Origin: a phage
Length of the DNA stretch: 64,000 bases
Reading direction: 5' to 3' (one strand)
Sequence record: PZ445439.1
Shown: positions 1,399 through 25,363 of the stretch, one piece after another
Layout: every line of letters starts with the position of its first letter
Numbering within the stretch: the stretch's first letter is position 1
The notes under the pieces: generated by a model
What the model saw: the letters and a program-made list of their open reading frames with translations, nothing else
What the model was told of the DNA's origin: nothing
The model's database searches: none
Translations under genes and position numbers: made by a program

Positions 1399-2034
1399 TC
1401 ACAGTTCAGATGCTACAGTGACTACTGCTTCAATGTTTTCTTCCGAGCGTTTAATGTCAAGATACACATTACCGTTTTTAGCGATTTTACATGACATTCC
1501 GATGTCAGTAAATTTCTGAATATGATGTTCCATCATTTTGTATCCAAAAATTCGCATATTTCCATTGTTGTTAATTTCAAAATTACGAATTCCGTGAGTG
1601 CGTTTTTCTAAAATAGCGAGATAGTTACTGCGATAAGTTTCAACCTTTTTAAGAACAAATCCATTTTCATCTAAAAGTTTTAACATGAAGTCTTTATCTT
1701 CTTCCATATCAGAAGTAATCTCACGAGCTTTACGAGTTGCTCGTTTTTTCAGCAGTTCCGGAGCATTTTCTTGTGCGTATAAAGTTGCTGCATTTGAAAT
1801 AATATCCTGAGCTTCACCAGTAATGATTAATCCATCACCAGATTTCTCCACTAGGCCTTTTTTAATCAATACCCCAATATTACTATTAACTACTGCATTA
1901 CCTAAATCTGGATGCACCTCACGAACTTCTGCAGCTGTAATAAAATCTTTCTTAGCAATAGTAATTAAAATTGCAGCAGTTTTTTCATTCAGAACATCGT
2001 TAGAAGCTTTGATGATGTAAGTTACTTTAGACAT
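1399..2034 (-). CDS. motA: MotA, activator of middle transcription
   Basis: 211 aa; sequence MSKVTYIIKASNDVLNEK...VASEL matches recalled T4 MotA almost residue for residue; early promoter cassette immediately upstream. Confidence 0.9.
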   Translation of the reverse strand: MSKVTYIIKASNDVLNEKTAAILITIAKKDFITAAEVREVHPDLGNAVVNSNIGVLIKKGLVEKSGDGLIITGEAQDIISNAATLYAQENAPELLKKRATRKAREITSDMEEDKDFMLKLLDENGFVLKKVETYRSNYLAILEKRTHGIRNFEINNNGNMRIFGYKMMEHHIQKFTDIGMSCKIAKNGNVYLDIKRSEENIEAVVTVASEL

Positions 2035-12348: not shown

Positions 12349-12621
12349 TTATTTAAAACGGATAGTCGAATCCTTGAAGAATAGACCAGAACACACAGTT
12401 CCTTCTACTTTCTGCCCGGTAGGTCCAATAGCACGAAATCCAGTATGTTGGAAATCATTTTCAGAGCAACCGAACCAGTTATATCCAGTGATTTCAATAT
12501 TAGTAAAACCGCTTGAAGACAAAACTTTAGTTGCATTATCAGCATCAGTACATCCTACTAAAGATACTGCTAATACTAATGCTGCGATAGAACGATTAAT
12601 ATATTTCATAATTTCACTCAA
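12349..12621 (-). CDS. putative lipoprotein
   Basis: 90 aa, signal peptide with lipobox-like LVGC. Confidence 0.4.
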   Translation of the reverse strand: MSEIMKYINRSIAALVLAVSLVGCTDADNATKVLSSSGFTNIEITGYNWFGCSENDFQHTGFRAIGPTGQKVEGTVCSGLFFKDSTIRFK

Positions 12622-12991
12622 ATTTAATGGCTTGAAGAAGACTAATAATTCTTAAACGGCTTCTTTCATCTTTAACTGTAAAAGAAAGAGGGTCGCCAGA
12701 TTTCATAGTAATAGTGCATTCAAAATCAAAATCTTCAGGAACTTCTTCGAAGAAGTCAAATTCTTCATCATAAATTAGAACATTACTCTGAAAACTGTGA
12801 AGAATTTTTCCATCATTTCCAGATGCTGTACTAATCATTGTAACATTATTACCTTTCATATCTTCAACGATAAATTCGCTTGTAGATATTACATTACTAA
12901 TAGAACCATTCCTATAAATAGCAGAAAATAGATATTTCTTTTCTTCGCCTTCGCGAATACGATACTTCTTACCGATTTTAAACATAATTAC

Positions 12992-16946: not shown

Positions 16947-18266
16947 TCATACGTAAAACACATCATAACGACCACGAGTGACACCAACATAAAGAAGCTG
17001 CTGAGCTAATTCAGCATCTGCATAATGAATACAAGGCGTATAGATGAAAGCACGGTCTACAGACATACCCTGCGCTTTATGGAATGTTGATGCAGGAAGT
17101 GCTTTCACTTTACTAAACTGTGATTTAGCATCCCAAAAATCACTCCATGGAGCTTTTCCGCCTTTATTCCAATTTTTATAAGTTTCTGCGGTTTTACCTA
17201 AAAATAGGTTAAACTTATATAGCTCTTCATCGGATGAAATTATTTTAATCTTTTCACGATAATATTCATCATCGCCATAAGTTTCTACTGTTAAATCCCA
17301 ATGACGAATTAGATATTCTCCAGGAACACCACGAGCTTTAACAAAGGTTGATGTATACTCTGCTTCTATAATACGAACTAATTGTCCGTTATTAAAAATA
17401 ATTTCTGACACAGGCTTTCCATCAATTTTATATGTTTTAATTAATGGTTCCTGCATTACAATAATTTCACCGACAATAAAATCTTTATCAGTTTCAAAAA
17501 TCTTTTTACGAATAATGCTATTTAACTTGTCAACAGATTTATTCGTAAATGCCATTACGCGATTTTCAAACAAATCATCTAGTGATTTGACGATTGAAAA
17601 ATAATTTACCATAAAATCGCGTAAAGCGGTATCACCGGTAAATCCACGTACTCCATGACCGTCAACAACTTTATCATAAATCCACTTACCGTTACGAACG
17701 TCAGTAGCTACATCAATAATAGGAGCATTACTGCGTTTAACTTCAGTGAGTTCACACTGATAAAAATCTTTGTGTGTAAAGAATGGACTGATATAAGCAG
17801 TATTTTCTCCTGGGTCAACAGGTCTAATTTGCTTATTATCACCTATTCCAATTATAGTACACCAAGGTGGAATGGTTGAAAGCAGAATTTTAAATAGCTT
17901 TCTATCATACATTGACACTTCGTCGCAGATTAATACCCTGCATTTAGCTAAATCTGGTACTTCTTTTTGTTCAAAAAGAACGTTTTCTTCATATGTTACT
18001 GGGTTAATTTTGAGAATACTGTGAATAGTACTTGCTTCTTTCCCAGATAGTTTTGAAAGAATCTTTTTAGCTGCATGAGTAGGAGCTGCTAAAATAATAC
18101 CAGTTTCACCTGTAGATATTAGGGCTTCAATAATGAACTTAGTAAGAGTAGTCTTACCAGTACCAGCAGGTCCATTAATAGTTACATGGTGTTTCTTTTC
18201 TTTGATAGCCCTCATAACGATGTTAAAGGCATTTTTCTGGCCTTCGGTCAAATCATCAAATGTCAT
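16947..18266 (-). CDS. dda: Dda DNA helicase (SF1B)
   Basis: 439 aa as in T4; Walker A GPAGTGKT and SF1 helicase motifs. Confidence 0.9.
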   Translation of the reverse strand: MTFDDLTEGQKNAFNIVMRAIKEKKHHVTINGPAGTGKTTLTKFIIEALISTGETGIILAAPTHAAKKILSKLSGKEASTIHSILKINPVTYEENVLFEQKEVPDLAKCRVLICDEVSMYDRKLFKILLSTIPPWCTIIGIGDNKQIRPVDPGENTAYISPFFTHKDFYQCELTEVKRSNAPIIDVATDVRNGKWIYDKVVDGHGVRGFTGDTALRDFMVNYFSIVKSLDDLFENRVMAFTNKSVDKLNSIIRKKIFETDKDFIVGEIIVMQEPLIKTYKIDGKPVSEIIFNNGQLVRIIEAEYTSTFVKARGVPGEYLIRHWDLTVETYGDDEYYREKIKIISSDEELYKFNLFLGKTAETYKNWNKGGKAPWSDFWDAKSQFSKVKALPASTFHKAQGMSVDRAFIYTPCIHYADAELAQQLLYVGVTRGRYDVFYV

Positions 18267-23131: not shown

Positions 23132-23159
23132 GTAATTCTCCTTTTATTTAAATTACATG

Positions 23160-23172
23160 ATTATTTATAATA
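23160..23172 (-). promoter_or_regulatory. late promoter (gp55-dependent) for soc
   Basis: minus strand TATAAATA about 25 nt upstream of AAGGAG-ATG of soc. Confidence 0.55.
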
Positions 23173-23547
23173 AATTCTCGCGGAACGTTAAAATACCCGA
23201 TTTTAGTTAATATAACAACATCGCCGTTAATAATTACCGGAGAATAATCTTCTGGAGCATTAAATTTCCAATGGGCTCTAATATTATATCCATCAGAACC
23301 AAATGCTCGAGTAGCCGGTCTCCCGGCTTTTTGCCACGCGTAGAAATCAAATTTCATTTTGAATGCTCTATAATTAATTTTAAAGCTTCTTCACTGACAA
23401 AAATTTCGTCAGGACCTTCTATAACTTCAACCATACGAAGTTGATTAGTTAAGAGCTCACATACGAGCTCCTTGTTATAATCTTTAAATAGCTGGTCAAT
23501 ACGTTTCTTATGGGCTTTCTTAAGCTGACGCTTATTTAAACGAGCCA

Positions 23548-24066
23548 TTAATAACCTCGGTCTTGACGAGCGAAGTTTTCAGCATTTTTCAGATAATAAA
23601 GTTTAAATATTTCTTCAGCTGACATTCCAAGAGCAATGAATTTATTCATGAAAAAGTGAAATTGATCAATCAGTTCAAATTTAATTTCAAGTTGATCTTC
23701 AGGAGATAAGTCTTGAATTTTCTTGGATTGCATTTCAGAATAACGTTTCTTCCAAGGTTTCCATACGGCAGAAGCTTCTTTTTCACCATTACTCATACCA
23801 CCAAGAGAAGTATATAGCTCGCGAGTTTCATCTGCGATATAATCGTCTTGGTTTCGCAACCAAGCAAGAACTTCTCCTGCAGTTTCAAGTGAATCGGGAT
23901 GACGATTTGTTTCTGGTTTATCATTAGCCAAACGAATCTGTAAATGCCGCTGCATATCAAGCATAACCTGCAATGGGTCAATACTGTGCATAATATACTC
24001 AGCATATGCACGATTTGCTTTATCAACACCTTCGATCAAATGAGCACATTCATTAAAGTGAGCCAT
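23548..24066 (-). CDS. 56: dCTPase/dUTPase gp56 (dCTP pyrophosphatase)
   Basis: start at internal MAHFNECAHLIEG gives about 172 aa (T4 gp56 171 aa); MotA-box middle promoter upstream; ORF-track N-terminal extension is unlikely. Confidence 0.8.
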   Translation of the reverse strand: MAHFNECAHLIEGVDKANRAYAEYIMHSIDPLQVMLDMQRHLQIRLANDKPETNRHPDSLETAGEVLAWLRNQDDYIADETRELYTSLGGMSNGEKEASAVWKPWKKRYSEMQSKKIQDLSPEDQLEIKFELIDQFHFFMNKFIALGMSAEEIFKLYYLKNAENFARQDRGY

Positions 24067-24099
24067 TATTTTTCCTTTCAATTCATGGGTTAGTAGATT

Positions 24100-24126
24100 A
24101 ATTATACAATAAATATATAAAGCAAT
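24100..24126 (-). promoter_or_regulatory. MotA-dependent middle promoter for gene 56
   Basis: minus strand TTGCTTTA, 11-12 nt, TATAAT. Confidence 0.5.
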
Positions 24127-24137
24127 AAGGAGGACAT

Positions 24138-24338
24138 ATGGTACAAAAATTAATGGCACTTGTTAATGCCATAAAAGGTAATAAGAAACGTATAGCTTTT
24201 ACTATTTCTGCTATGGTAGGAATTTTACTCTGGAACTTTATTTTATCACCTGTTGCAATTGCACATGGTATTAATATTCCAGTAGTTACTCTTGATACAT
24301 TCGTAGATTTAGCATTTGCTTTAGTTGGGTTAATTTAA
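24138..24338 (+). CDS. hypothetical small hydrophobic protein on the opposite strand (uncertain)
   Basis: only plus-strand ORF with a strong SD (AAGGAGG, 4-nt spacer); two predicted hydrophobic segments; lies in the 56-61 intergenic gap. Confidence 0.3.
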   Translation: MVQKLMALVNAIKGNKKRIAFTISAMVGILLWNFILSPVAIAHGINIPVVTLDTFVDLAFALVGLI

Positions 24339-25363
24339 ATCTTAGCATATTTAGATAGCCGCATTTTAGCCATCAACCCCTGGGCAATATTATTTTTCAT
24401 ATATTCCATAATTTGTTCAGGGGTTGCACCTTCCTTTCTAATCATATCATTAACATCTTTTGATTTCCAGGGAGATTTATCCCAAAACATAACCCTTTCT
24501 CCTGCATCAACTAATTTAGTCATTCGTTTGATAGTGTCAGGGTGACGAGGTTCATTATCTAAAACCCACACTCGTCTATCTTTAAATGGAACAACTTCTA
24601 GGTCTAATTGACCACCCGTAATAGCTATACCATTTTCAATAAAAAGTGAATCTATAGGTCCTTCTAGAACATATACATCACCATCTTTAACTCGTTCGAC
24701 TCCATATATTTTTGTTGCCTCAGGATAAGCTTTGATGGTGATATATTTTTGAGGAGCATCTTTCTTTAATGCACGTCCTTGAAAAGACTCAGCTTTTCCA
24801 TTAGCATTATAAATTGGAATAACAAGACGAGGCTCAGAAATTTCCTTTTTGTATGTTCCCGGTGCTATGCTATTAACTAATTTAGGCCATTCGGTTGTAA
24901 ACCAAAGATATTTCCATTTATCCTTTGGAATACAACGAGCTTTTACATATTTTATAATTGGATGGTCTTCCGCCAGTTTATCTAATCTAACGCATGACGG
25001 AAGAGATTTAATTATTTTCTTCTCAGGTTGTTTAGGAAGTTCTTTAGGTTTTTCTACTGGACGACTTTTACCTTTTTCTTTTCTTATTTCAAAGATATAC
25101 TCACGATATAAATCAGGTTCAAACTCCTTTAAATATATTCCGATTGGTGCATGATAGTTACAGTTATAACAATGAATATTTCCTTCATTATTATCACCAT
25201 AATACCATCCACGAGCTTTATTCTGGTCGGTTTTTGAATCTCCACAAACAGGGCATCTAAACCGTAATTTAAAAGTTGAACTATTATTTACTTGTGTGAA
25301 TTTAGGTAAATGAGCTAATGCACGGTATGCAAACTCATTATCAATCCAAGGTATTGATGACAT
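24335..25363 (-). CDS. 61: DNA primase gp61
   Basis: 342 aa as in T4; N-terminal zinc ribbon CPVCGDS...CYNC and Toprim-like core. Confidence 0.9.
   Translation of the reverse strand: MSSIPWIDNEFAYRALAHLPKFTQVNNSSTFKLRFRCPVCGDSKTDQNKARGWYYGDNNEGNIHCYNCNYHAPIGIYLKEFEPDLYREYIFEIRKEKGKSRPVEKPKELPKQPEKKIIKSLPSCVRLDKLAEDHPIIKYVKARCIPKDKWKYLWFTTEWPKLVNSIAPGTYKKEISEPRLVIPIYNANGKAESFQGRALKKDAPQKYITIKAYPEATKIYGVERVKDGDVYVLEGPIDSLFIENGIAITGGQLDLEVVPFKDRRVWVLDNEPRHPDTIKRMTKLVDAGERVMFWDKSPWKSKDVNDMIRKEGATPEQIMEYMKNNIAQGLMAKMRLSKYAKI

Follow-up and report, generated by a model that had tools for sequence, protein, structure and literature searches.

The stretch of DNA analysed here, hereafter the window, comprises 64,000 nucleotides (nt) of a Tequatrovirus (record PZ445439.1) and carries, between gene 56 and the primase gene 61, a small open reading frame (ORF) of 66 residues on the plus strand. 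Comparison with related phages identified this ORF as a genuine phage gene, with a conserved product of ~7 kDa on which purifying selection acts, and its upstream region predicts probable transcription late in infection. We consider it very likely that the ORF is at once a genuine gene, late-expressed and the source of a membrane protein. The gene is already catalogued, its uncharacterised product being listed as a hypothetical protein, and the T4 reference annotation lacks it. An earlier note on the window had suggested a real antisense-encoded small membrane protein, and this proposal is supported by the bias of substitutions across codon positions, a ratio of nonsynonymous to synonymous substitution rates (dN/dS) below 1, occurrence in nine genera, a Shine-Dalgarno sequence, and a hydrophobic sequence that conforms to the positive-inside rule.

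Searches with tblastn retrieved the ORF from 692 phage records. The frame, whose integrity in close relatives the earlier note had left in question, was intact, with at least 80% of the ORF covered in one piece in 686 of the 692. Identity was 91–100% among Tequatroviruses and about 44–57% in Mosigvirus and Gaprivervirus, the frame also stays open in other genera at 49–57% amino acid identity, and the protein measured 61–74 residues across the lineages read. Between the window and Mosigvirus, nucleotide differences at the first, second and third codon positions numbered 28, 12 and 43, respectively; because no gene on the opposite strand overlaps the ORF, this pattern therefore reflects selection on the encoded protein. 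Nei-Gojobori dN/dS values ranged from 0.07 to 0.44 in comparisons both inside one genus and across genera, the latter showing saturation at synonymous sites. The protein matched family phrog_2024 (category "unknown") over its full length (E=1.4e-31, residues 2–66 against profile positions 1–65 of 65), and all 13 lineage representatives matched the same profile. Translation signals are conserved as well: GGAGG precedes the ATG by 9–11 nt in 13 of the 14 upstream regions read, with GGAG in Mosigvirus. In the window itself, the 66-residue frame and its AAGGAGG motif were confirmed at 24138..24338 and 24127–24133. Ten plus-strand ORFs of at least 40 residues are not covered by a longer minus-strand ORF, and a Shine-Dalgarno sequence was found in front of this one alone, in agreement with the previous claim that it is the only convincing plus-strand candidate. 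It is the sole opposite-strand gene within a long run of early and middle genes.

Homologues adjoin the primase gene at its 3' end, most often in a stop-to-stop arrangement, in nine genera of T4-type phages, namely Tequatro-, Mosig-, Gapriver-, Dhaka-, Marfa-, Kanagawa-, Gelderland-, Jiaoda- and Moonvirus. In all lineages, the ORF and gene 61 either overlap stop to stop or are separated by no more than about 20 nt. This conserved position next to the primase gene is an observation made here and no formal criterion of phrog_2024. Gaprivervirus UPEC01 harbours two tandem copies (1495..1692 and 1701..1901 of related record L007), one per subfamily. The second of these served as the prototype of the second subfamily, and tblastn with it matched Dhakavirus (JS98, JS10 and IME08), Marfavirus, Kanagawavirus and Gelderlandvirus, along with weaker matches in Jiaodavirus and Moonvirus that were confirmed with a Moonvirus query. 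In every second-subfamily genus examined, the plus-strand homologue adjoins the minus-strand primase gene. Within Gaprivervirus, the second copy is broken in DK-13 (L005 1701..1900), where a homing-endonuclease gene lies between it and gene 61, and it is degraded in TH40 (L006) too.

A profile search of 5.8 billion proteins yielded 88 matches, all of 33–74 residues, and each one that could be assigned an origin belonged to a T4-type phage or to a contig of phage size. No functional name was attached to any except obvious mislabels, and two divergent metagenomic members share the context beside the primase gene. A phmmer search of 1.8 billion representative proteins returned family members and three spurious repeat proteins only, and neither of these two collections contained a remote homologue whose context was informative. 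Only 14 bp separate genes 56 and 61 in RB49 (Krischvirus; L028 1009..1024), with neither a small ORF nor a promoter region between them. Judged by this distribution, the gene belongs to the Tevenvirinae and their nearest relatives rather than to T4-type phages as a whole.

The interval between gene 56 and the ORF (window 24067..24137 and its equivalents in T4, L012 and L019) was found in at least four arrangements and is thus an insertion hot spot. Nothing is inserted in the window and in related records L008–L010; dam is present in T4, where it sits between genes 56 and 61, and in L011; fPS-90 carries a homing-endonuclease gene; and L012 contains dam plus a further ORF of 186 residues. The ORF, its ribosome-binding site and a late-promoter-type word are intact in all four. 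The dam-less arrangement was found in at least 293 of 514 related records, in which the query was covered end to end. The interval spans only about 90 bp and is likewise dam-less in Mosig-, Gapriver-, Dhaka- and Gelderlandvirus, and it contains a different small gene in Marfa-, Kanagawa- and Moonvirus. Since the dam-less arrangement is the commoner one and is present in other genera, comparison of these arrangements indicates that the dam-less state is ancestral at this site and that dam in T4 is an insertion. The absence of a methyltransferase from the gap, as previously noted, was upheld by a tblastn search of the whole window with T4 Dam, whose best match had E=0.78 and lay elsewhere. The suggestion that the ORF is a remnant of dam loss or gain was ruled out: tblastn detected no residual Dam similarity in it, and it is intact both with dam (T4, L011 and L012) and without.

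The T4 late promoter is an 8-bp word, TATAAATA, at positions -13 to -6; of 50 listed sites, 32 are perfect and nine have A at -13, which is the commonest natural variant (PMC2988020), and A or T at -13 is common among T4 relatives (PMC1524935). A word of this type was present in all 14 upstream regions examined, starting 20–30 nt and ending 12–22 nt before the ATG; in the window, AATAAATA ends 22 nt before it. Across lineages the word belongs to the class TATAAATA, N-ATAAATA or ATTAAATA, with the perfect form in Marfa and Kanagawavirus Q7622; AATAAATA in the window, Mosigvirus, JS98 and PKO111; GATAAATA in T4 and L012; CATAAATA in Gaprivervirus, PEi26 and JD18; and ATTAAATA in CGG4-1 and CF1. 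The sequence around the word is otherwise unalignable between genera. In the window, the plus-strand AATAAATA falls inside the spacer of the minus-strand gene 56 middle promoter, whereas in Mosigvirus and JS98 the word lies outside the spacer; the middle promoter is therefore not what conserves it. The chance of encountering such a word in a given 12-nt zone is ~0.001 per lineage.

The class is scarce in the window, where TATAAATA was observed twice against 10.8 expected and AATAAATA four times against 15, and, counting both strands (128 kb), the class as a whole occurs just 10 times. This depletion on both strands is consistent with selection against stray late promoters in a region of early genes. 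One of the two perfect copies of TATAAATA is the soc promoter (23169->23162), 30 nt upstream of soc and ~1 kb from the ORF. The other, the sole perfect plus-strand copy (12913..12920), is located inside a minus-strand ORF (12614..12985), has no plausible plus-strand ORF after it, and is a possible antisense late promoter. The plus strand at the locus yielded no sigma-70-like promoter, nor was a terminator on that strand found in 23800–24800, and an Rfam scan of the region gave nothing meaningful.

In the mechanism proposed here, RNA polymerase with gp55 would transcribe the ORF late from AATAAATA at 24108–24115. By the -13 to -6 rule, the transcript would start near 24121, and its leader of ~17 nt would hold the strong Shine-Dalgarno sequence. 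It would then run on, antisense, into gene 61, because the stop-to-stop overlap leaves no room for a terminator and none was found.

The encoded protein has a grand average of hydropathy (GRAVY) of 1.25, and its best 19-residue hydropathy window scores 2.0. Its five lysine or arginine residues all fall within residues 1–18, and D53 and D57 are the sole acidic ones. The two-helix membrane peptide envisaged in the earlier note was not borne out: an AlphaFold2 monomer, built on a shallow 16-sequence alignment (mean predicted local distance difference test score 80), displays one long helix (residues 16–42) and two short ones (2–12 and 52–63), with a loop at 43–51. Residues W32, N33, P38, G44 and P48 are invariant in the 13 aligned lineages, with A40 and G64 nearly so; in further members read, W32 and N33 are kept, with single exceptions at G44 and P48. 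The conserved residues are gathered at the outer end of the long helix and in the loop after it, and in the predicted model this cluster suits a binding interface. In the second subfamily, the C-terminal tail is clearly less hydrophobic, which favours one membrane span over a hairpin. By the positive-inside rule, the basic N-terminus would be cytoplasmic and the protein would reside in the inner membrane, with a single transmembrane helix at approximately residues 19–42 and a tail of ~24 residues, including D53 and D57, on the periplasmic side. The region of W32, N33, P38, A40, G44 and P48 would bind a membrane partner, the protein being too small for catalysis.

Several observations weigh against the reading of the ORF as a late membrane-protein gene. 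The promoter word of the window is not the exact consensus, and T4 and Gaprivervirus have G or C at -13, which are rarer variants. The predicted topology is based on the charge distribution and on the AlphaFold monomer with its shallow alignment of 16 sequences, and in subfamily A residues 19–66 are hydrophobic throughout, which is compatible with a two-helix hairpin. The absence from the RB49 locus indicates, at the level of gene content, that the gene is dispensable for some T4-type phages. No pointer to a function emerged from homology, neighbours or structure in the family, PDB-sequence and fold searches, and a literature search found nothing on the ORF, no expression data, and no strand-specific or ribosome-profiling (Ribo-seq) data from T4 that cover it.

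Among other explanations, the main product could be the RNA: a late transcript from AATAAATA, antisense through gene 61 and the early genes upstream of it, would help to shut off or process leftover early and middle mRNA, and the ORF would be secondary. The close apposition of ORF and gene 61 in all lineages, by which a late transcript would enter gene 61, is in keeping with this idea, as are the lack of a plus-strand terminator in the region searched and the transcription of both T4 strands, at different times, at several sites (PMC2988020). However, such a role leaves unexplained the codon-position bias, the dN/dS below 1, the strong and conserved Shine-Dalgarno sequence and the kept length, together with an amino acid motif that is conserved at only 20–30% overall identity. 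An RNA as the main product was thus deemed improbable, and the RNA and protein roles are compatible with each other. Alternatively, the first 42 residues could be cleaved off as a Sec signal peptide, the case reported for T4 RI, leaving a periplasmic peptide of 22–30 residues (HGINIPVVTLDTFVDLAFALVGLI) as the functional product. In an alignment read by eye, all 13 lineages have P-x-A-x-(A/S/T/G) after the hydrophobic core, with a polar residue and Gly next in line; the resulting helix breaker near -5, together with small residues at -3 and -1, resembles a signal-peptidase I site, and the region ahead of the core is basic. Against this, the core runs to 19–24 residues, where a cleavable Sec signal would have about 7–15, and 18 residues precede it; both lengths exceed what is usual in cleaved signals and are characteristic of signal anchors. 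W32 and N33 fall within the putative signal and do not vary between genera, which would be unusual for a disposable sequence, and cleavage is considered improbable.

A second hole-forming lysis protein, that is, a holin or pinholin, is suggested by database labels ("Holin" in UniProt for OE5505 and "holin family protein" in GenBank for EAWsc9), by a size, hydrophobicity and predicted late expression that resemble class II holins, by at least one predicted transmembrane domain, and by a Mosigvirus helix rich in Ala and Gly. Yet no Pfam holin model matched any of 13 members and the PHROG category is "unknown". The protein is without a charged C-terminal tail, as it has no lysine or arginine after residue 18 and ends in ...DLAFALVGLI, and T4-type phages already possess holin T. 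Its neighbours encode dCTPase and primase, with no linkage to endolysin or spanin genes, a point of little weight given that T4 lysis genes are scattered anyway. The "holin" labels on the two homologues are unsupported, and we regard this function as very improbable. That the ORF is not a gene at all, being open by chance, through DNA conserved for other purposes (the gene 61 terminator or the gene 56 middle promoter and origin region) or as a dam scar, is hardly credible. Points in favour of this reading are a short, AT-rich frame, overlap of the 5' end with a minus-strand hairpin and of the upstream region with the gene 56 middle promoter, and the omission of the ORF by T4 annotators. None of this accounts for substitutions biased to the third codon position with dN/dS well below 1, a frame open at 20–57% amino acid identity across nine genera, a tandem paralogue in Gaprivervirus, or the presence of the ORF with and without dam and free of Dam similarity. 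A gene 61 terminator as the cause of conservation was ruled out, since the hairpin, searched for at the Mosigvirus and JS98 loci, was found in neither, and the ORF is kept in both.

Coordinates of the ORF and of the features around it in the window.
Feature	Position	Strand	Remarks
Small plus-strand gene, 66 residues + stop	24138..24338	+	ATG 24138, TAA 24336-24338; small hydrophobic protein, PHROG 2024
Shine-Dalgarno sequence AAGGAGG	24127..24133	+	4 nt upstream of ATG; sequence read
Gene 56 (dCTPase/dUTPase)	23548..24066	-	Divergent from ORF; start codons 71 nt apart; start per Bas40 annotation
Gene 61 (DNA primase)	24335..25363	-	Convergent with ORF; 4-nt stop-to-stop overlap in TTAA
Late-promoter-type -10 element AATAAATA	24108..24115	+	A(-13) variant of consensus TATAAATA
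Gene 56 middle promoter	24101..24125	-	MotA box TTGCTTTA 24125->24118, 11-nt spacer, extended -10 TGTATAAT, hexamer 24106->24101
Terminator-like hairpin + T-run	24143..24172	-	Inside ORF codons 6-12; 8-bp stem, then TAATTTTTGT

The 701 bases around the ORF are 100% identical to Escherichia phage FelixPlatter (BASEL Bas40, MZ501065), in which the ORF is annotated as bas40_0142, "hypothetical protein", as it is in most close relatives. The gene 56 middle promoter, which had been placed on the minus strand before, was recovered with its MotA box TTGCTTTA, 11-nt spacer and TGTATAAT; the MotA box was called by direct reading of the sequence against the published consensus, and the fPS-90 record has a predicted middle promoter annotated at the equivalent place. 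The minus-strand hairpin (24172->24143; -8.9 kcal/mol, z=-2.35), annotated as a terminator in the fPS-90 record, is probably the 3' end of the gene 61 transcript. The same DNA is accordingly used on both strands, with the terminator-like hairpin of gene 61 lying within the 5' coding part of the ORF. At gene 56, a sharp mosaic boundary was apparent: gp56 is only about 70% identical in amino acids to its T4 counterpart, compared with 99.7% for gp61 and 97% for the small ORF. In addition, segF, which adjoins gene 56 in T4, is absent here, and two small minus-strand ORFs (23148..23357 and 23354..23548) are present instead.

The T4 copy of the gene is located at 17738..17938 on the plus strand (NC_000866; L003 2739..2939), is 97% identical to that of the window and is preceded by GATAAATA at 17709..17716. 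T4 records NC_000866, AF158101 and KJ477684 have nothing annotated in the 309-bp gap between dam (start 17625) and gene 61 (end 17935). Both this unannotated copy and the late-promoter-type word AATAAATA were missing from the earlier note. The ORF is likewise unannotated in JS98 (EF469154 15343..15543; L020 701..901) and PEi26 (L024 686..871), and the JS10 and IME08 records show the primase gene as the sole annotation where the match falls. Elsewhere, homologues are mislabelled as "dCTP pyrophosphatase" (CGG4-1, SEA1 and IME341) or "DNA packaging ATPase" (the UPEC01 paralogue, SAKp28 and P8). The two holin labels aside, the remaining names seen were "hypothetical protein", "uncharacterized protein", one "putative membrane protein", or mislabels.

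T4 is among the most thoroughly studied of genomes, yet its gap between dam and gene 61 holds a gene that is kept in many hundreds of T4-type phages, and a candidate late membrane protein is hereby added to the T4 gene list. The case also bears on annotation practice, as the gene is lacking in the T4, JS98, JS10, IME08 and PEi26 records and wrongly named in several others. The ORF is a precise target for knockout, topology and interaction work. Involvement in the timing or inhibition of lysis, or in some other late process at the envelope, would, if true, fill a gap in a textbook system; if a knockout proved silent, this would be merely another small accessory ORF.

Functional searches were conducted with sequence families, structures and defence-system models. 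Pfam, queried with 13 members at E≤10, gave no match but two chance ones (YwcE and COX7B); NCBIfam provided nothing relevant and PADLOC no match; a profile search of PDB sequences produced chance matches only (E≥0.14); and Foldseek against viral models returned family members only. Neither Pfam nor NCBIfam has a model for phrog_2024, and no publications on the family were found. Our guess, which we ourselves hold to be doubtful, is that the protein acts as a late envelope accessory factor, most plausibly one that tunes the lysis-timing network of holin T and antiholin or another late inner-membrane complex. The holin T/antiholin network was singled out on two grounds, the scattered location of the lysis genes in T4 and the predicted orientation of T, which matches that of the ORF protein. 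More specifically, the protein could be an unrecognised late envelope component of T-even phages, for instance a membrane-spanning partner of holin T, antiholin RI or the spanins by which lysis timing or inhibition would be tuned; this is unlikely. The small size of such a component, its hydrophobicity and its place on the "wrong" strand of an early region would explain why T4 genetics and annotation missed it.

With respect to known families and systems, phrog_2024 is the ORF's own family; it agrees with the ORF in full-length alignment, in size and in location beside the primase gene, and nothing differs. The superinfection-exclusion proteins Imm and Sp of T4 are likewise small envelope proteins of T-even relatives, and sp lies ~2 kb away in the same gene block, but both are early genes on the early strand and have no sequence similarity to the ORF protein. 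Class II holins or pinholins, such as S68 of phage 21, are similarly 60–70 residues long, very hydrophobic and late-expressed, as is predicted for the ORF. They differ in having two transmembrane domains, a basic C-terminal tail and a place beside the endolysin gene, whereas the ORF protein has a 12-residue C-terminal helix with two Asp, no basic tail and no lysis genes as neighbours.

Holin T, antiholin RI and RIII act late at the inner membrane, and their genes are scattered around the T4 genome without forming a cassette. Holin T is a single-pass protein with its N-terminus inside and its C-terminus outside, and RI has an N-terminal hydrophobic signal; the ORF protein shares the predicted orientation of T. 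In contrast, there is no similarity in sequence or structure, and the periplasmic part of the ORF protein would comprise ~24 residues compared with globular domains in T and RI. Finally, soc is the classic late gene that maps in the early region. Like the ORF, from which it is ~1 kb away, it is a small gene among early and middle genes with a TATAAATA-type element closely upstream. However, soc is on the same strand as its early neighbours, has a perfect TATAAATA and encodes a soluble capsid-decoration protein, whereas the ORF, coded on the other strand and convergent with gene 61, carries a variant word and specifies a predicted membrane protein; late expression is established for soc and predicted for the ORF.

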